This document shows, one piece after another, positions 8,845 to 46,960 of a stretch of DNA of 64,000 bases (its first letter is position 1; every line of letters begins with the position of its first letter). Both the position numbers and the translations under genes were made by a program. The DNA comes from an uncultured Clostridia bacterium (GTDB taxonomy: Bacteria > Bacillota > Clostridia > TANB77 > CAG-508). The notes beneath the pieces are model-generated. The model did no database searches. It was given only the letters and a program-made list of their open reading frames with translations, and was not told the DNA's origin. The stretch is taken from the NCBI GenBank assembly GCA_934167495.1, contig CAKPKP010000001.1:48904-112903 (forward strand), in the 5' to 3' direction.

Positions 8845-11094
8845 ATGAAAAAGGTAAAAATAGTAGCTACAATAATTACAATTTTATTATTAATGAGTTT
8901 GAATACATATGCAGTTGAAACAACAGAAAAAGACAAAGAAGTTGAACTTTCTTATTATACTCATGTTCAAGATATTGGATGGGAGGAGAAGTTTTGTCAT
9001 AAAAATGGAGAAATAGCAGGAACAACAGGAAGAGCTAAAGTTATAGAAGCTATTGTTATAAAGGCTGACAATTTACCAAAAGGTGTAACTTTAAAATATC
9101 AAGCACATGTAAGAGATATAGGTTGGCAAAGTTGGAAAAATAATGGAGAAATGGCAGGAACAACAGGAAGAGCAAAATCAATAGAAGCTATACAAATTAT
9201 GCTTCAAAATACAGAAGAATACACTATACAATATAGAGTGCATGTAAGAGATTTAGGATGGCAAGATTGGGTAAATAATGGAGAACAAGCAGGAACTACT
9301 GGTATAGCCAAACCTATAGAAGCTATACAAATAAAAATTATAAAAAGAGATGGTAAAATTCTTTATAAAGCACATGTGAGTGATATAGGTTGGATGAATT
9401 GGATGTATGATGGAGAACAAGCTGGAACTACAGGAAAAGCAAAGCCAGTTGAAGCTTTATATATTAAATCAGCAGAAAGCGAAAAATTTCAAATTGAATA
9501 TCAAGCACATGTAAGAGATATAGGCTGGATGGATTGGGTAGAAAATGGAGAACAAGCAGGAACTACAGGAAAGGCAAAGCCTATTGAAGCAATAAGAATA
9601 AAATTTAAAGAAGAGAATTCTGAATATAGCATAATGTATAGAGCACACGTAAGAGATATAGGCTGGATGGATTGGGTATATGATGGAGAACAAGCAGGAA
9701 CTACAGGAAGAGCAAAATCAGTAGAAGCAATACAAATTAAAATCGTACCAAAAACAGAAGAAAGAGTTACTTTATATGAAACTGGAACGTATGGTAAAAG
9801 CGGGTTATCATATAAAGGAGATTCTAGAGGAAGAAATTTAGAATATTATAGATTTGGAAATGGACCAAATGTGCTTTTTGCAACATTTGCAGTTCATGGA
9901 TTTGAGGATAAATGGAATAATGATGGTGGAGAACTAGTTACTATTGCTAATAATTTTTATAATCAACTAAAAAGTGGAAAATATGATGATATAGCAGAAA
10001 AGTGGACTGTATATATTTTTCCAGAAGTAAATCCAGATGGAAGGAGATATGGTTATAGTCATAATGGACCAGGAAGAACAACTTTATTTAGTAAAGCAGA
10101 AGGAAACAAAGGAATAGATATAAATAGATGTTGGGAGATTTCTGGAGTTCCATATCAAAGATTTACAGAAAGCAGAAACTACAATGGAACATCAGGATTT
10201 CAAGCTTATGAAGCAGTAGCTTTAAGAGACTTTTTATTAGCAAATCAATCTAAAACAGGACAAACTATATTAGTTGATTTACATGGTTGGACAAATCAAT
10301 TAATAGGTGATGAAGAAATATGTATGAATTATTATTATCCTAGATTTAAAAATTCAGATAGAAGTGCTGTTGGAAGATATGGTACAGGATATTTAATTAA
10401 TTGGGCTAGAAGTACATTGCGTTCAAGTGCAGGAAATGCAAAATCCGTATTAATAGAATTACCATCAAATGGTGTAGATAGTACTCAAGATGTTATAAAA
10501 TACAACTTATCTGGTAGATACATAGAATCAACAATAGAAATGTTAAAAAATATTTATGTTCCTTCAAATGAAATAAGAGTAAAAGCTCAAAGCTTAGTAG
10601 TCGAGGAACAAATAACAGAAGAAGCTCAGTTTAATACAACACTTGCAGGAATAATAAAAGAAAATAAACCAAACGATGATGAAATAGAAGAAATTGTTGC
10701 AAAAGAGAATTTAAAAAATGGTGTATGGATTAGTGAAAGATCAAGAAATGAATTTTTAAAATTAATAAATTCTTACACAAATCAAAAATATGAAATAGAT
10801 GATAATGGTTATTTAAAAATAGCAAAAAAATCAGAAAATAAAAATGATTATGATATAGCTTTAGAAAAGGCAATGAGTTCTAAAAAAGAATATGTAATTG
10901 ATATTTATGGAAGTTATTATTCTATAGATTATGTTACAAAAACAATAGAAAATAATCCTTTTGAGAAAATGGATCCTTATCAAATTTGTGAATATGTAGA
11001 AGCAGAAAATAAAAAAGCAATTATTTTAACAAGTAATTCACAAAATAAATTAGATAAAAAAGAAATAATAGATGTATTAATTGAAATGCTTTAA
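8845..11094 (+). CDS. secreted ChW-repeat protein with M14 zinc carboxypeptidase-like (gamma-D-glutamyl-diamino acid peptidase-like) domain
   Basis: Signal peptide. Seven ~48-aa repeats of the form HV(R/Q)DIGW...GE.AGTTG.AK.IEAI.IK, i.e. the clostridial hydrophobic-W type. These are followed by AVHGFED, NPDGRRYGY and DLHGW, the HxxE/NPDG/H signature of M14 peptidases. Confidence 0.7.
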   Translation: MKKVKIVATIITILLLMSLNTYAVETTEKDKEVELSYYTHVQDIGWEEKFCHKNGEIAGTTGRAKVIEAIVIKADNLPKGVTLKYQAHVRDIGWQSWKNNGEMAGTTGRAKSIEAIQIMLQNTEEYTIQYRVHVRDLGWQDWVNNGEQAGTTGIAKPIEAIQIKIIKRDGKILYKAHVSDIGWMNWMYDGEQAGTTGKAKPVEALYIKSAESEKFQIEYQAHVRDIGWMDWVENGEQAGTTGKAKPIEAIRIKFKEENSEYSIMYRAHVRDIGWMDWVYDGEQAGTTGRAKSVEAIQIKIVPKTEERVTLYETGTYGKSGLSYKGDSRGRNLEYYRFGNGPNVLFATFAVHGFEDKWNNDGGELVTIANNFYNQLKSGKYDDIAEKWTVYIFPEVNPDGRRYGYSHNGPGRTTLFSKAEGNKGIDINRCWEISGVPYQRFTESRNYNGTSGFQAYEAVALRDFLLANQSKTGQTILVDLHGWTNQLIGDEEICMNYYYPRFKNSDRSAVGRYGTGYLINWARSTLRSSAGNAKSVLIELPSNGVDSTQDVIKYNLSGRYIESTIEMLKNIYVPSNEIRVKAQSLVVEEQITEEAQFNTTLAGIIKENKPNDDEIEEIVAKENLKNGVWISERSRNEFLKLINSYTNQKYEIDDNGYLKIAKKSENKNDYDIALEKAMSSKKEYVIDIYGSYYSIDYVTKTIENNPFEKMDPYQICEYVEAENKKAIILTSNSQNKLDKKEIIDVLIEML

Positions 11095-36486: not shown

Positions 36487-38850
36487 TTATTTATTTGAAG
36501 TTGTATCACTATGTTTATTTGTTCCTAATTTAAATGATATTGCATCTTCATTATCAAAGAAATATTTAGAATCAGTTATGTTAGTTTGAATAGGGTCCAT
36601 ATCATTTGGATTTTCAGGATTATTATTAAAGTTAATGTTTTTTAAATCAAATTTATTTTTAAATAATCTATTTTGTGAAGAATTCATTTTGTCCTCTTCA
36701 GTTTGAATTCCATTTGTAAATTTAGCAAAATTATATGTTTTAATTTTTTGTTTTTCTTTATACTTTGATTCTAGGAAATCAACTTTACCAGCACCAACAA
36801 TGTTTTTACCTTTTAGATCTTTAGTTTTATATATAAGTGCTTTAAATTTCAAACCTTGAATTTTACCAGCTTTATAATTTGCTTTCCATGCCCATTCAAT
36901 ATCTTTATATTTTTGATCATAAGTACCATCTTTAGTATTATAATCATTCTTAAATTTCCATTCTCTTTTTTCACCTAAATCTTTTTCCCACCAAGCATTA
37001 TCTTCAGGAGTGTTATTACCAAATACCATTTTTGTAGAGCAGTTTGCAACTATTGTTTGTCTGTAATTATCACCATCTGCTTTACCAAATTGAGAAAGGT
37101 TTTGAGCAGATATAATTGTTCCAACTCTATATTTTCTATACAATGTGAAGATATCTTCTGTAGCTCTACATACAAATGTAGGGAATTCATCAATATATAA
37201 GAAGTGAGGTATTCTAGTTTTTTCATTGCCTGGTCTTGATAAAACAGAGTGTTGCATTAATAATAAGAAGAATAGACCAAAAGCTTTATTTGTTATGGCA
37301 CCTAAATCACCTCTACGAGTACAAACGAAAACAACTTCACCATTTTTAAGTACTTTATCGTAATCAAGGTTATTATATCTATTACATAATATTGATTTAA
37401 CACCAGGGTATCTTAATAAAGTTTCAAGTTGAGAAGTAGCAGCTTGAATATATTTTTCTGCATTTTCTCTATTAACACCATTTCTATAGAAGTTCTTTTC
37501 ACAATAACCAATTTGAATAGAATATTGTTCAGATAAATATTCATCTTTTTTCATTTCTTCACACATTTTTTCTATTAAACTAAAGTTATTAAATAATTTT
37601 AATAAATCTTCTAAAGTAGGTAGGGCATTATCAGTTCTTCTTAAATAAACTTCTTTTAAAAGTAAACTTAAATTTTCAATTGCTTGAAAAGCAAAGTTTT
37701 GCATAAAAGCTTCTTCAGGAATAACATTTGATGTATCATACATTCTTTTTAGTACTGAAGAAATTGCTATAGAAGTTTTGATTGGATCTTTATATACGAA
37801 AGGATTTAAACCTATTGAATCTGGATTATTTGGATCAATTAAGTGATACTTAACATGATAGTTTTTAGCAACTTTAACCATATGTTCTATAGATTCATAA
37901 TCAGGTGCTACATATGTAATACCTAAATTTTTGTATACCGTATGTTCATCATCATAGTGATATATTAATTTTTTCATATAAGTTTTATATATTTTTTCTT
38001 TATAAGAAATAGGTGTAAGCATATTTAAAGAAAAGTTTTCATTTATATATTCATTTGAATATGGTGTGTTTAATGTAGCAATACCAGTTTTTAAAGCAGT
38101 ATATCCCATTTCTTTAGCAGCTTCTGTAAAGAAACATTTTTTCTCAATATCTCTTGCAATCATTGGCTCAAATACCATTGAAGTTTTACCAGAGCCAGAT
38201 ACACCTACAACTAATGTTGCTTCAAATCTTCTAGCTTCAGGTGTTTTGACTATTTTACCATTATCACTATCTTTACAAAGTGCTATTTCACATGTATATG
38301 GACCCCAACCTTCTTTATTATCTGATAAGTTTATTCCAGTATAATCTGTTATAGAATCTTTAATATCTTTAACATCATCAACTTTAAAATATAAGAATTT
38401 AAATAAAGTAAAAAATGTTACCAAAGGTACATAACATGAAATTGCTGTAAAAGCAGGTTTTATTAAATCTCTAAAATTTAAAACTACTTCAATATAATTA
38501 GGGGCTGAAAGTAATAATAACCATCCAGCTTTATTAAGCCATTGTGTAAGCATTGAAATTCCAACTATATAAAGTGAAATTGCATACAAATAGAAAAATG
38601 TTAATTTTTTCTTTTTGTCACTTGCAAACTTAGAGGATGATGAAAATAAAAATGCAAAAACAGGACATGCAAGTGCAAATGTATATTGGAAAGGTCCCCA
38701 ATATGATACTGAAATTCCAGTGAAGCACATAAATAATATTTCAACTACTCTATCTACACACACATATATAGTGAGCAATGTTAAAATATATGTAAAAAAG
38801 GTATTTCTATCAGTTTTTAGTATTTTTAAAAATTTATCTAAATATTTCAA
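36487..38850 (-). CDS. polytopic membrane P-loop ATPase, TraG/VirD4 (type IV coupling protein)-like; orphan
   Basis: N-terminal ~200 aa with about 4-5 TM helices. Walker A VVGVSGSGKTS. Walker B FLYIDEFP. Then ISAQNLSQFGK, resembling the T4CP Q-motif. No other T4SS genes nearby. Confidence 0.4.
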   Translation of the reverse strand: MKYLDKFLKILKTDRNTFFTYILTLLTIYVCVDRVVEILFMCFTGISVSYWGPFQYTFALACPVFAFLFSSSSKFASDKKKKLTFFYLYAISLYIVGISMLTQWLNKAGWLLLLSAPNYIEVVLNFRDLIKPAFTAISCYVPLVTFFTLFKFLYFKVDDVKDIKDSITDYTGINLSDNKEGWGPYTCEIALCKDSDNGKIVKTPEARRFEATLVVGVSGSGKTSMVFEPMIARDIEKKCFFTEAAKEMGYTALKTGIATLNTPYSNEYINENFSLNMLTPISYKEKIYKTYMKKLIYHYDDEHTVYKNLGITYVAPDYESIEHMVKVAKNYHVKYHLIDPNNPDSIGLNPFVYKDPIKTSIAISSVLKRMYDTSNVIPEEAFMQNFAFQAIENLSLLLKEVYLRRTDNALPTLEDLLKLFNNFSLIEKMCEEMKKDEYLSEQYSIQIGYCEKNFYRNGVNRENAEKYIQAATSQLETLLRYPGVKSILCNRYNNLDYDKVLKNGEVVFVCTRRGDLGAITNKAFGLFFLLLMQHSVLSRPGNEKTRIPHFLYIDEFPTFVCRATEDIFTLYRKYRVGTIISAQNLSQFGKADGDNYRQTIVANCSTKMVFGNNTPEDNAWWEKDLGEKREWKFKNDYNTKDGTYDQKYKDIEWAWKANYKAGKIQGLKFKALIYKTKDLKGKNIVGAGKVDFLESKYKEKQKIKTYNFAKFTNGIQTEEDKMNSSQNRLFKNKFDLKNINFNNNPENPNDMDPIQTNITDSKYFFDNEDAISFKLGTNKHSDTTSNK

Positions 38851-44529: not shown

Positions 44530-44559
44530 CCTCTTAGATATCTACAGATTATGTAGCTA

Positions 44560-44780
44560 TTATAAGTAAAGACGGAGGATATTATCTTATTGATCCAAAT
44601 GATACAAACATAATTAAAACAGGAGATAGAATTATATTTGGAAAAAATATAGTGATGATACATATTACTCTATTAATGAGTACAAGAAAACAATAGAGGA
44701 ACAGATGCAGTACCATCTGCAATAGATGCTTTGATGATTGTAAAACATAAACTAGGTAAATATAGAATTGTTCAATAAAA
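44560..44780 (+). pseudogene. degraded remnant containing a dockerin-like fragment
   Basis: Out-of-frame pieces ...NGTDAVPSAIDALMIVKHKLGKYRIVQ* repeat the IDALAIVKYKLGKYEIEQ segment of the upstream GH5 gene. Confidence 0.4.
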
Positions 44781-44984
44781 ATGGAAAATAAAAAGTTCAC
44801 TTAGTAATAATAAAAATATAATAAGTGAACTTTTTAATATATTATTTGATATATTATAGAAAATTTTTCAAAAATTCAAAATTATTTTTATAAATATGTA
44901 TTGCAAAAAGAAATAATATACTGTAAAATAAAAATGAAGTAAAAAATAAAGGAGATGTAAACAAATGAAAAGCGTTGGCGCTGT

Positions 44985-45006
44985 AGAGAGAGAGAGAGAG
45001 AGAGAG
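44985..45006 (+). repeat. (AG)11 dinucleotide tract between the strong RBS/ATG (44965) and the body of the surface-protein gene
   Basis: AGAGAGAGAGAGAGAGAGAGAG read directly from the sequence. Flanked by GCTGT and CTATAC. Confidence 0.95.
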
Positions 45007-45034
45007 CTATACTTTAAGAAATAGAGAAAAAACA

Positions 45035-46960
45035 ATGTATAACAATGAAGCAAGGGACATTTTTAAAAATGGCTCTATTTTTGGTGTAAAAAAACAAGAG
45101 TCGGCAATAACATTAATAGCATTAGTTTTAACAATCGTGGTATTATTAATATTAGCAGGAATAACGTTAAATGCAGTTATTGGAGAAAATGGAATATTAG
45201 ATAAATCAAAAACAGCAGCGAATGAATATAAAATAGCACAATATAAGGAAAGAATAGAAATAATAACAGCAGGGGAACAATCTAAAAAGATAATTGATAA
45301 TTTACCTAAATCTTTAAAAGATTTAGTAGTAGAAAGATTAGAAAGTGAAGAAAATGCTTATTGGGTAAAAACAGTAAAAACAACTGAAGAAGATCCAGAA
45401 CTAGAAGAAAATCAAATAAAAGTAATAACACAAGATAAATATATAATAGTAGCAGAAATAGAAGACGGAAAAGTAACATTTATAACAATAGAAATAGATA
45501 ATGGAGAGCCTTATCCAAGTCTAGAAGCAGAAGTAATGCCACTAGAAGGACAAGAAGATGAAAATATAAAAATAAAAGTAAACGCAGAGGTAGGAAAAAC
45601 AAGTAAAACTACAAAAATAGATACAATAGAATTAATAAAAGAAGGAACAGTGCTAGAAACAAGAAATTATAATGAATTGCAAGTAAACGACACATTTGAA
45701 GTAGAAGAAAATGGAACATATAGAATAAAAGCAACAACAAATCAAAAAAGAAGTACTAGTAGAAAAGTAGAAGTAAATGTACAATCAATAGAAAGTTCAA
45801 TACAGATAAGTGCAGAACCAACAACAGAAATAGCAAGAAATACAGAGAATCCAGGAACAAAAAATGGAATAGAAACTGGACCAATAACAGTAACAATAAA
45901 GTATGAAGAAATAGGATTACAGAAACAATATAGTATAGATGGAGCGAATTGGATAAATATAGAAGAAACAACTGTAAAGATACCAGTAACAGAAAACATA
46001 AAAATAAAAGCAAGATATACAGATGGAAGTAATTCATACAAATTAACAAAATATGATGTACAAAATGTAGATAATATAGCACCAACATTTACAAAATATG
46101 ATGCAACAGTAAAAGAAACAACAATAACAGCAACAGGTGAAGCAACAGATACAGCAAGTGAGGGAGCAAAAAGCGGAATAGAAGGAATATTAAAATACGA
46201 ATATAGTATAGATGGAGAAAATTATCAAAATGAAAATACATTTACAGTAACAGTATCAGGAAATTATACAATATATATAAAAGCTATAGACAAAGCTGGA
46301 AACGAAACAATAGTAAGTAAAACAGTGGAAGTTGCAATTTATACAATAACTTATGATGCGAACGGTGGAACTGGTGCACCAGAAGCTCAAATAAAAATAG
46401 GAGGACAAGATTTAATATTAAGTTCTACTTATCCAACAAAATCAGGATACGCTTTTGCAGGTTGGGCAGAAAATGATAAAACTATTGCAGAATATACAAC
46501 TGAAAGCGTATATAGTAAAGATAAAGATGCTTATTTTTATGCAGTATGGATTAAATCAAGTATTAATTTTAGTAGTAGTAGTGAAGTTGAAAAAGAATGC
46601 AAATTGGGTGTTAGTCCACTTTTTCCAGTGGGTACTAAAATAACTTATAGTATATCTGCTTATTATGTAGTTACAGGTATGGATAATGGACATTCAATTT
46701 ATCAACAGCAAGGTTTTGACTTAGCAACAACAACACCATCAACAACAGGAGAATATGTAATAGTAGGAAAAACAGGTGGATATGTTCGTATAAATGAAAA
46801 TGTGGTAAGATCATCTGGTAGCTTTGTTACTAATAAAAATGGAGAAACTTTAAGTGTAGCTATCAAGGTACCAGAACATACTTCTAAAGGAACTTCTTCA
46901 GATAGTTATTATTGGACTAGAACTAATACGGTAAATCTTACTATAAAGATTTCTAATTGA
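45035..46960 (+). CDS. large surface protein: signal-anchor, Ig-like/FN3-like repeats, C-terminal Listeria-Bacteroides (InlB B-type) repeat
   Basis: Hydrophobic ITLIALVLTIVVLLILAGITL. YTITYDANGGTGAPE...SGYAFAGWAEND matches the B-repeat. The alternative upstream start at 44965 would be in frame if the AG tract gained one unit. Confidence 0.6.
   Translation: MYNNEARDIFKNGSIFGVKKQESAITLIALVLTIVVLLILAGITLNAVIGENGILDKSKTAANEYKIAQYKERIEIITAGEQSKKIIDNLPKSLKDLVVERLESEENAYWVKTVKTTEEDPELEENQIKVITQDKYIIVAEIEDGKVTFITIEIDNGEPYPSLEAEVMPLEGQEDENIKIKVNAEVGKTSKTTKIDTIELIKEGTVLETRNYNELQVNDTFEVEENGTYRIKATTNQKRSTSRKVEVNVQSIESSIQISAEPTTEIARNTENPGTKNGIETGPITVTIKYEEIGLQKQYSIDGANWINIEETTVKIPVTENIKIKARYTDGSNSYKLTKYDVQNVDNIAPTFTKYDATVKETTITATGEATDTASEGAKSGIEGILKYEYSIDGENYQNENTFTVTVSGNYTIYIKAIDKAGNETIVSKTVEVAIYTITYDANGGTGAPEAQIKIGGQDLILSSTYPTKSGYAFAGWAENDKTIAEYTTESVYSKDKDAYFYAVWIKSSINFSSSSEVEKECKLGVSPLFPVGTKITYSISAYYVVTGMDNGHSIYQQQGFDLATTTPSTTGEYVIVGKTGGYVRINENVVRSSGSFVTNKNGETLSVAIKVPEHTSKGTSSDSYYWTRTNTVNLTIKISN

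Follow-up and report, generated by a model that had tools for sequence, protein, structure and literature searches.

We analysed a stretch of 64,000 nucleotides (nt) from the genome of an uncultured human-gut Clostridium (contig CAKPKP010000001.1; hereafter the window), which has a G+C content of 26%. In the window, a short leader open reading frame (ORF) runs through a perfect (AG)11 tract ahead of a gene for an adhesin-like surface protein. The evidence below makes it very probable that this is a contingency locus, at which slippage sets the number of AG units (n) and a count divisible by three (n mod 3 = 0) places the leader and the adhesin-like protein in one continuous frame.

In the mechanism that we propose, transcription would begin upstream of the tract, and ribosomes would load at a strong Shine–Dalgarno sequence (SD) and the ATG at 44965 and translate into (AG)n. 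Slipped-strand mispairing during replication would alter n by one AG unit (2 nt) per step. At values of n that are multiples of three, the leader frame would go on as (Glu-Arg)n-SYTLRNREKT into the surface-protein frame, and the ON product would be the full-length protein with a long, charge-balanced N-terminal extension ahead of a pilin-like membrane anchor. Because this N-terminal region would be either cytoplasmic or removed by cleavage, changes in the length of (Glu-Arg)n should be tolerated. In the other n classes, the ribosome would halt at a TAA at 45015 or, as in the window with n = 11, at a TAG at 45022, and the OFF state would yield the adhesin-like protein only at whatever low level an internal ATG at 45035 permits. 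Slippage as the mechanism, how strongly expression changes and which agent exerts selection (host IgA, phage or niche) are our inferences.

Leader, tract and reading frames

All features described here lie on the forward strand unless stated otherwise. A sigma-70-like promoter (TTGCAA, a 17-nt spacer and TAAAAT; 44901–44929), identified by consensus scan only, precedes the leader; the tract should therefore lie within the transcript and not in a promoter spacer. The scan also flagged TAGAGA, an 18-nt gap and TATACT spanning the tract, and the conserved CTAYAMTTTA motif is itself −10-like. We ruled out a promoter-spacer role, because the −35 element would be the AG repeat itself and tracts of 18–52 nt cannot form a spacer of 16–18 nt.

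Direct reading of the sequence placed the leader SD, AAAGGAG, at 44948–44954 (AGGAG at 44950–44954), followed by the ATG at 44965. The SD/anti-SD duplex for this ATG was calculated at −9.1 kcal/mol, placing it in the top 3% of all ATGs in the window, and the leader start and first seven codons are conserved across all locus copies that we compared. After six codons, the frame runs into the perfect (AG)11 tract at 44985–45006, found both by direct reading and by Tandem Repeats Finder. No other AG run in the 64-kb window reaches six units, and none arose in 100 shuffles that preserved dinucleotide composition. In its present OFF frame, the leader ORF (44965–45024) encodes MKSVGAVERERERELYFKK and then ends at TAG.

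The surface-protein ORF as called (45035–46960) has 641 codons, and its frame is open upstream through the tract as far as a TAG at the tract's 5′ edge (44984–44986), which overlaps the first AG; a distant homologous locus, L027, has a TAG arranged in the same way. The entire reading frame thus spans 44987–46960, giving 641 amino acids from the ATG at 45035–45037 and 665 amino acids when fused at n = 12. The two ATGs are 70 nt apart, which is 1 mod 3, so that the leader and ORF frames differ by one base and are joined if the tract grows by 2 nt (to n = 12) or shrinks by 4 nt (to n = 9). The frames are therefore fused (ON) at n = 9, 12, 15 and so on, and the window, with n = 11, is OFF. When n mod 3 = 1, the leader frame ends at TAA (45015–45017; 11 nt after the tract in the frame table); when n mod 3 = 2, the present state, it ends at TAG (45022–45024), which begins 16 nt past the tract. 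A repeat unit whose length is not a multiple of three is thus arrayed in perfect tandem within a translated 5′ end, with one n class leading to the full-length product and two leading to early stops, as expected of a simple sequence repeat (SSR) contingency locus. The original prediction, made from the letters of the window alone, had described this SD, ATG, tract, early stop and back-open frame, and each was exact on direct reading.

The window leader is homologous to the attenuator-type leaders described below, and weak AU-rich pairing between 45016–45026 and 45073–45084 is followed by a U-run. Both observations would fit control of the window copy by transcription attenuation, as in loci with a separate leader and in the pil1 locus of Streptococcus gallolyticus, instead of by translational fusion. 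However, a terminator scan of 44700–45300 detected none, the fold of 45007–45110 was no better than that of shuffled sequences (z = −0.87), and the long frame has no stop before it enters the structural gene. The window thus contains neither a separate leader ORF for the long frame nor an intrinsic terminator before the gene, and we regard attenuation here as very unlikely. Searches against Rfam left the leader region unmatched in nine related loci (E up to 1), and the window itself matched only a tRNA.

Using the hypothetical n = 12 fusion as the query, a protein search found the window protein (P0001) and close relatives in human-gut metagenomes. We retrieved the DNA of 23 metagenome copies of the locus and counted their AG units; all comparisons rest on assembled sequences. 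The counts were 11, 11, 12, 13, 15, 16, 17 (six copies), 18, 19 (four copies), 20, at least 20, 22 and 24, with flanks that were almost invariant among copies over 80 nt on the 5′ side and 28 nt on the 3′ side of the tract. Loci L003 and L004 had n = 16 and n = 15, respectively, with no mismatches over 400 plus 4,800 flanking bases (5.2 kb), and L002, L003 and L004 (n = 17, 16 and 15) shared the downstream 4.8 kb without a mismatch. Since near-identical flanks accompany differing values of n, the tract is by far the fastest-changing site of the locus. Its length, far from being invariant, ranged from 11 to 24 units between otherwise near-identical copies, and is thus polymorphic between very close relatives.

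The fusion expected from the gain of one AG unit was present in metagenome gene calls, which included proteins of the form MKSVGAV(ER)nESYTLRNREKT-MYNN... at n = 12, 15 and 18. The n = 12 form, MKSVGAVERERERESYTLRNREKT-MYNN..., corresponds to P0002 and P0136; the n = 15 form, with two more ER units, to P0122 and P0133; and the n = 18 form, with four more, to P0127, which occurred on eight contigs. P0122 is P0001 plus the extension, P0127 is P0126 plus the extension and P0136 is P0125 plus the extension, with no other difference, indicating that ON and OFF versions of one allele exist. Among the contigs behind the listed cluster members, 14 out of 78 (approximately 18%) were in the ON frame, and most natural alleles were OFF.

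Several contigs start or end in the tract or within a few dozen bases of it (L008, L014, L015, L020, L027, L052, L088, L099 and L151), and stutter in Illumina sequencing and PCR is known for dinucleotide runs, so the length differences might be explained as an assembly or sequencing artefact. We consider this extremely improbable. The range of 11–24 units spans independent studies and assemblers, particular values recur (17 in six copies and 19 in four), and a like spread is seen across many unrelated leader variants. One-unit stutter cannot produce a spread of 11–24, and true length heterogeneity within a sample would also break contigs; the breaks at the tract are consistent with such assembly-graph breaks, although they are suggestive only.

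Other changes at the locus were also observed. The leader SD is polymorphic at the position equivalent to 44951 of the window, with the weaker AAAGAAG in L010, L012 and L018, the last of which is an ON allele; this polymorphism could add a second, slower layer of expression tuning. In L013, an A-to-T change within the tract (GTAGAGTGAGAG...) makes an in-frame TGA, which would be a non-slippage route to OFF or else a sequencing error. The lineage of P0005 (L168; also P0006, P0017, P0021 and P0022), which recurs in several samples, combines the leader and a long tract (n = 24 or 22) with a mid-gene frameshift (L168, 2950–2965) that splits the gene into ORFs of 184 and 474 amino acids. We had considered N-terminally truncated homologues of 441–474 amino acids as possible silent cassettes and rejected this idea, as the lineage examined, P0005, proved to be the same locus with the mid-gene frameshift.

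Comparison with divergent copies bears on which start codon is used. In a more divergent lineage (L019, protein P0003), the tract has decayed and is interrupted, GTAAAGAGAGCGAGC; it is fixed in the frame of the upstream ATG, and the translation is MKSVGAVKRASYTLRNREKAMYNN. The position of the internal ATG is occupied by TTG in L168 and by AAA (Lys) in the fused homologue L138; in the fused relatives L062, L073 and L161, the stretch from the tract to the membrane anchor is free of start codons; and in L027 the AUG equivalent to the internal start sits within a hairpin of −26 kcal/mol. Given the in-frame, tract-less L019 and the non-conserved internal ATG, the upstream ATG is therefore the conserved start, and the ATG at 45035 would at best be a leaky or re-initiation start.

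It is nevertheless possible, if doubtful, that the tract acts as a volume control, with ATG 45035 always initiating, from its own weak SD or by re-initiation, and the tract adding a stronger route when in frame. This alternative is compatible with frame switching and differs only in the tightness of OFF. The SD of ATG 45035, which the original prediction had called weak, is indeed weak and not absent (−5.0 kcal/mol; top 19% of window ATGs). The two OFF-frame stops sit 10 and 17 nt upstream of this ATG, a distance that allows re-initiation, and termination–re-initiation over short distances is an established form of translational coupling in bacteria. The predominance of the OFF frame among natural alleles points the same way. 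Set against this are the lack of conservation of the internal start in L168, L138, L062, L073 and L161 and its enclosure in a hairpin in L027.

Returning to frame switching as an on/off device, several points weigh against it or limit it. We infer within-clone switching and its reversibility from assemblies, and the n values were counted in short-read assemblies, where the length of a long dinucleotide run can be wrong by one unit. Because the OFF stops lie so close to ATG 45035 and its SD is modest, residual expression in the OFF state is possible, and OFF may be low rather than zero. The small share of ON contigs could mean that OFF is selected for, or that ON is not needed for function. The mid-gene frameshift of the P0005 lineage indicates that the gene is dispensable or pseudogenised in some hosts. 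The on/off contingency geometry first proposed for the locus is thus supported by tract variation and by the fusion proteins, and its OFF state is possibly leaky.

A family of leader cassettes

A pattern scan for (AG)7 or longer followed by CTAYNNTTTA matched at least 120 metagenome stretches and two viral contigs (IMG/VR). The scan demanded n ≥ 7 and CTAYNNTTTA, and conservation of CTAYNNTTTA is therefore no independent result. Among the 122 matches listed, to which the counts of variants and elements below also refer, about 100 were the same leader element, in 65 unique variants, mostly from human-gut contigs; these variants are phylogenetically related, and their counts are not independent events. 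The arrangement had been thought unexpected in Clostridia, a view that did not hold: the window copy is one of about 60 variants of a leader cassette that is widespread in gut Clostridia. The element consists of an SD, an ATG, approximately 6–15 codons ending in ...[KRE][ST][VLI][EDGA][AT][VL], (AG)n and CTAYACTTTA. Within groups with identical flanks, n was widely spread (for example, 9–24, 9–18 and 10–13). In almost every variant, two of the frames after the tract end within 6–37 nt and one is long, and 39 out of 106 elements, about one third, were in the long-frame state.

These data bear on the view that the gene starts at 45035, leaving the tract as a neutral 5′-untranslated microsatellite whose length has no effect. 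The called start is 45035 in most assemblies. By contrast, the SD, the ATG and a short leader of about 7–15 codons are conserved before the tract in the 65 variants, almost all of these variants keep one long frame, and the tract-less allele remains in frame. A perfect AG run of 22–48 nt is not expected from drift at 26% G+C. A neutral tract is accordingly a highly improbable reading.

Most variants have a separate leader ORF. Distant homologues occur in metagenome-assembled genomes of other gut Clostridia, and dinucleotide tracts are found 5′ of the gene there too: (AG)10 in L023, (AG)20 in L027, (AG)11 in L033, (AC)10 in L032 and (AC)15 in L042. L023, L032, L033 and L042 each carry the tract within a short ORF that is distinct from the gene and has an SD and an ATG of its own; this leader ORF is followed by a long hairpin and a T-run and then by a gene with its own strong SD; a separate leader ORF is also found in L060, L064 and others. 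The (AC)10 tract of L032 (2829–2848) and the (AC)15 tract of L042 (2298–2327) are in leader ORFs with terminators at the corresponding position. Hairpin z-scores of these relatives ranged from −4.5 to −8.2. Among variants with a strict hairpin and T-run, the stop of the long frame fell inside the hairpin in 31 out of 34, no more than 8 nt after it in two and 2 nt before it in one. Exactly one frame reached the hairpin in 28 out of 29 variants, and in a control with shuffled spacers the mean chance of any frame reaching the hairpin was 0.29. In this first output of the separate forms, the ribosome would melt the downstream terminator, as in S. gallolyticus pil1.

In the fused design, the long frame never stops and becomes the N terminus of an anchor protein, as in the window and in L027, L062, L073, L089, L117, L135, L138 and L161. 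A third, coupling design was seen in L049, L069, L079, L100, L136, L153, L160, L166 and L167, where the long frame ends 40–45 nt past the tract on an ATGA overlap with a small ORF; the SD of this ORF, GAGGTG, base-pairs with ACCTCT. In PHROGs, the small ORFs had matches among the phage tail and tail-fibre families (E values down to 4e-26), and two of the loci are IMG/VR viral contigs; a search of the INPHARED collection returned no named phage relatives of the tail-fibre cassette. In this second output of the separate forms, the ribosome would open the hairpin that hides the SD and terminate on the ATGA overlap with the phage tail-fibre gene.

L077, L066 and L068 share one upstream leader half (GTGAAAGCTAAAAGCGTTGATACTGTA), but each has a different half on the far side of the AG tract, which suggests that leaders and output modules are exchanged by recombination at the tract. 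Some loci show further repeat-associated features. In L039, an A7 run at the equivalent position (approximately 2900–2950) puts the gene out of frame, which A8 would restore, and an A6/A7 difference distinguishes L027 from the tract-less L026. Hairpin-forming repeats rich in G+C lie within otherwise AT-rich translated N-terminal extensions in L073, L117, L089 and L138 and in the upstream region of L022; examples are TGTAGGGGCAAACGCCTCTGTCCGC and GTAGGGGTCGGCGTCCCCGACGACCCGCAG, which encode ...VGANASV... and ...NAVGVGVPDDP....

Taken together, we think it reasonably likely that human-gut Clostridia and their phages carry an undescribed (AG)n/(AC)n cassette, shuffled horizontally, of which the window leader is one copy. 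Such a cassette would be a portable stochastic switch with three interchangeable outputs, namely N-terminal fusion, ribosome-mediated antitermination and SD unmasking with ATGA coupling. A large number of pilin-anchored adhesin-like proteins, together with phage tail fibres, would be under its control.

Several known systems share parts of this design. In the Helicobacter pylori outer-membrane protein genes sabA, sabB, hopZ and oipA, CT/AG dinucleotide repeats lie in the 5′ end that encodes the signal peptide, and the opa genes of Neisseria carry CTCTT repeats. The window locus likewise has a repeat whose unit is not a multiple of three in a dispensable N-terminal leader region, where frame shifts exchange the full-length product for an early stop, and its alleles likewise vary in repeat number. 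By contrast, the window comes from a Gram-positive gut anaerobe that forms spores, its repeat is part of an added leader before a pilin-like anchor and not of a Sec signal peptide, and the clostridial leader is a transferable cassette found with dozens of unrelated genes, in non-fused designs as well.

In attenuation of the Escherichia coli pyrBI type, the leader ORF extends through the attenuator and a translating ribosome blocks the hairpin, with control exerted through nucleotide-dependent coupling of RNA polymerase and ribosome. In the separate-leader relatives of the window locus, a ribosome crossing the terminator region would similarly prevent the hairpin physically. The clostridial control would differ in being a heritable change of frame, and pyrBI logic is inapplicable to the fused window copy.

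A further parallel is provided by S. gallolyticus pil1 and pil3, for which experiments showed that the GCAGA repeats of a leader ORF determine whether a premature terminator is destabilised by the ribosome (Danne et al. 2014, PMC3894217). The relatives of the window locus show exactly the layout of pil1, an SSR in a short leader ORF whose long frame carries the ribosome into or through a terminator; in pil1, this switches on the operon (PMC3894217). Both systems are linked to surface or adhesive structures in a gut Firmicute. The repeat unit is a GCAGA pentanucleotide in S. gallolyticus and an AG (or AC) dinucleotide in the clostridial family (PMC3894217). Unlike pil1, the window copy lacks a terminator and has its leader fused to the gene, and in the clostridial family the leader sequence is conserved, genomic copies are numerous and phage genes show a third, translational-coupling design. 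We saw no sequence homology to the streptococcal leader, although no formal test was made.

A Type III mod gene of Mycoplasma mycoides has (AG)12 in its coding region with frameshift on/off control (PMC3498834). It shares with the window an AG tract of similar length, frameshift on/off control and a low-G+C, Firmicute-related genome. Unlike that of the window, its tract is internal to the methyltransferase gene, has no leader cassette and affects a phasevarion regulator instead of a surface protein.

The surface protein and other features of the window

The protein encoded downstream of the tract had been predicted to be a surface protein with a Listeria–Bacteroides repeat and Ig-like repeats, and domain and structure searches bore this out. 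A Listeria–Bacteroides repeat (Flg_new) domain was identified at 46340–46546 (residues 436–504; Pfam E = 1.4e-11). An AlphaFold model (predicted local distance difference test score of 75.8) shows a membrane helix at the N terminus, another long helix and a series of beta-sandwich domains, and its best Foldseek matches in the PDB were the giant adhesins GhpA and SiiE (E of about 1e-7). With a Flg_new/TIGR02543 repeat and tandem beta-sandwiches outside a membrane anchor, the protein has the features of an Ig-like repeat surface adhesin.

The N-terminal membrane anchor, AITLIALVLTIVVLLILAGITL (45104–45169), is the hallmark of the family, with invariant alignment columns and a helix at residues 27–49 of the model. 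Its family-wide invariant form is [GA]ITLIALVxTIVVLLILAG, preceded in most aligned members by a short basic leader. The anchor is followed by a conserved stalk of approximately 450 residues and then by strongly variable C termini, and some homologues have PT-HINT or other payload domains. In its primary structure, the anchor resembles a prepilin signal, reading S-AITLIALV (G-ITLIALV in relatives), with Ala where the prepilin motif has Glu+5; the motif that prepilin peptidase recognises also has Gly at −1. The window protein did not match Pfam N_methyl, and the NCBIfam prepilin model gave one sub-threshold match, to P0031 (E = 0.04); neither Pfam nor NCBIfam thus supported membership of the prepilins (type IV pilins or pseudopilins).

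The C-terminal approximately 180 residues (approximately 46400–46960 in the window) occur as at least two unrelated modules, ...SSINFSSSSEVEKECKLG... or ...SATYSVSASSGQDEQSISIEVP..., in mosaic combinations. Both modules are found on alleles that are near-identical across the N-terminal 450 residues, and AlphaFold confidence is low in this region. The mosaic C termini suggest cassette exchange of the binding tip. We also considered and rejected a phage origin for the window gene: P0001 had no PHROG match, and its neighbours are genes for pyruvate kinase and a GH5 cellulase.

Between the GH5 cellulase gene and the leader lies the remnant of a dockerin-like gene (44530–44778; ...TDAVPSAIDALMIVKHKLGKYRIVQ*). 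At this site, L002, L005 and other strains have two whole genes, for proteins of 339 (dockerin) and 346 amino acids, relative to which the window carries deletions.

Downstream of the locus, the spore-coat gene cotJC (Mn-catalase family) is split into two reverse-strand pieces, 47057–47374 (residues 97–202) and 52368–52679 (residues 1–104), which lie 5.0 kb apart on either side of an insertion at 47375–52367. Past the second piece, cotJB (52684–52944) and cotJA (52947–53282) are intact. The insertion carries genes for a large serine recombinase (49899–51500) and an Apyc1-like protein of the metallo-beta-lactamase fold (48536–49312), and resembles a skin-type element that has inserted into a sporulation gene; L019, L168 and L170 have an unbroken cotJC. 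Elsewhere in the window, an ORF of 749 amino acids (8845–11094) includes a tandem repeat of 135 nt (45 codons) at 9095–9743, with 4.8 copies and 73% identity, and may encode another repeat-bearing surface protein. A reverse-strand gene for a TraG/VirD4-type coupling protein (36487–38850; Pfam TraG-D_C and T4SS-DNA_transf), approximately 6 kb upstream of the locus, suggests a conjugative-element remnant.

Probable phase variation in gut Clostridia

Frameshift switching of surface proteins by SSRs is classical, and its leader/terminator version has one proven precedent. Searches of the open literature (subscription-only papers not covered) for the anchor motif and for SSRs, leaders or attenuation in Clostridia found only the S. 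gallolyticus study. As far as Rfam and the searchable literature extend, the conserved dinucleotide leader cassette and its abundance in uncultured gut Clostridia appear to be new, as do its three output designs and its use on phage tail-fibre genes.

For phase variation in gut commensals, the searchable literature yielded only work on DNA inversion, for example in Bacteroidales. Phase variation in Clostridioides difficile has also been mapped mainly as DNA inversions, and repeat-driven switching is regarded as typical of pathogens adapted to a host, among them Neisseria, Haemophilus, Helicobacter and Campylobacter. Judging by the locus described here, gut Clostridia that are uncultured and very rich in AT would carry classic contingency loci on adhesin-like surface proteins, for which both ON and OFF alleles occur naturally in human populations, Hadza samples included.

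The signature of the cassette is searchable, and would allow phase-variable surface genes and phage receptor-binding genes to be listed in Firmicute metagenomes. It also carries a warning for annotation: ORF starts and apparent pseudogenes at such loci depend on n, and assemblies tend to break there. The cassette family offers many natural replicates of a leader/terminator logic proven so far in one streptococcus, and the cassette could serve as a compact, tunable stochastic switch for synthetic biology in Gram-positive anaerobes. If our reading of the family is true, SSR phase variation, and not only invertons, would be a major source of surface heterogeneity in gut Firmicutes.

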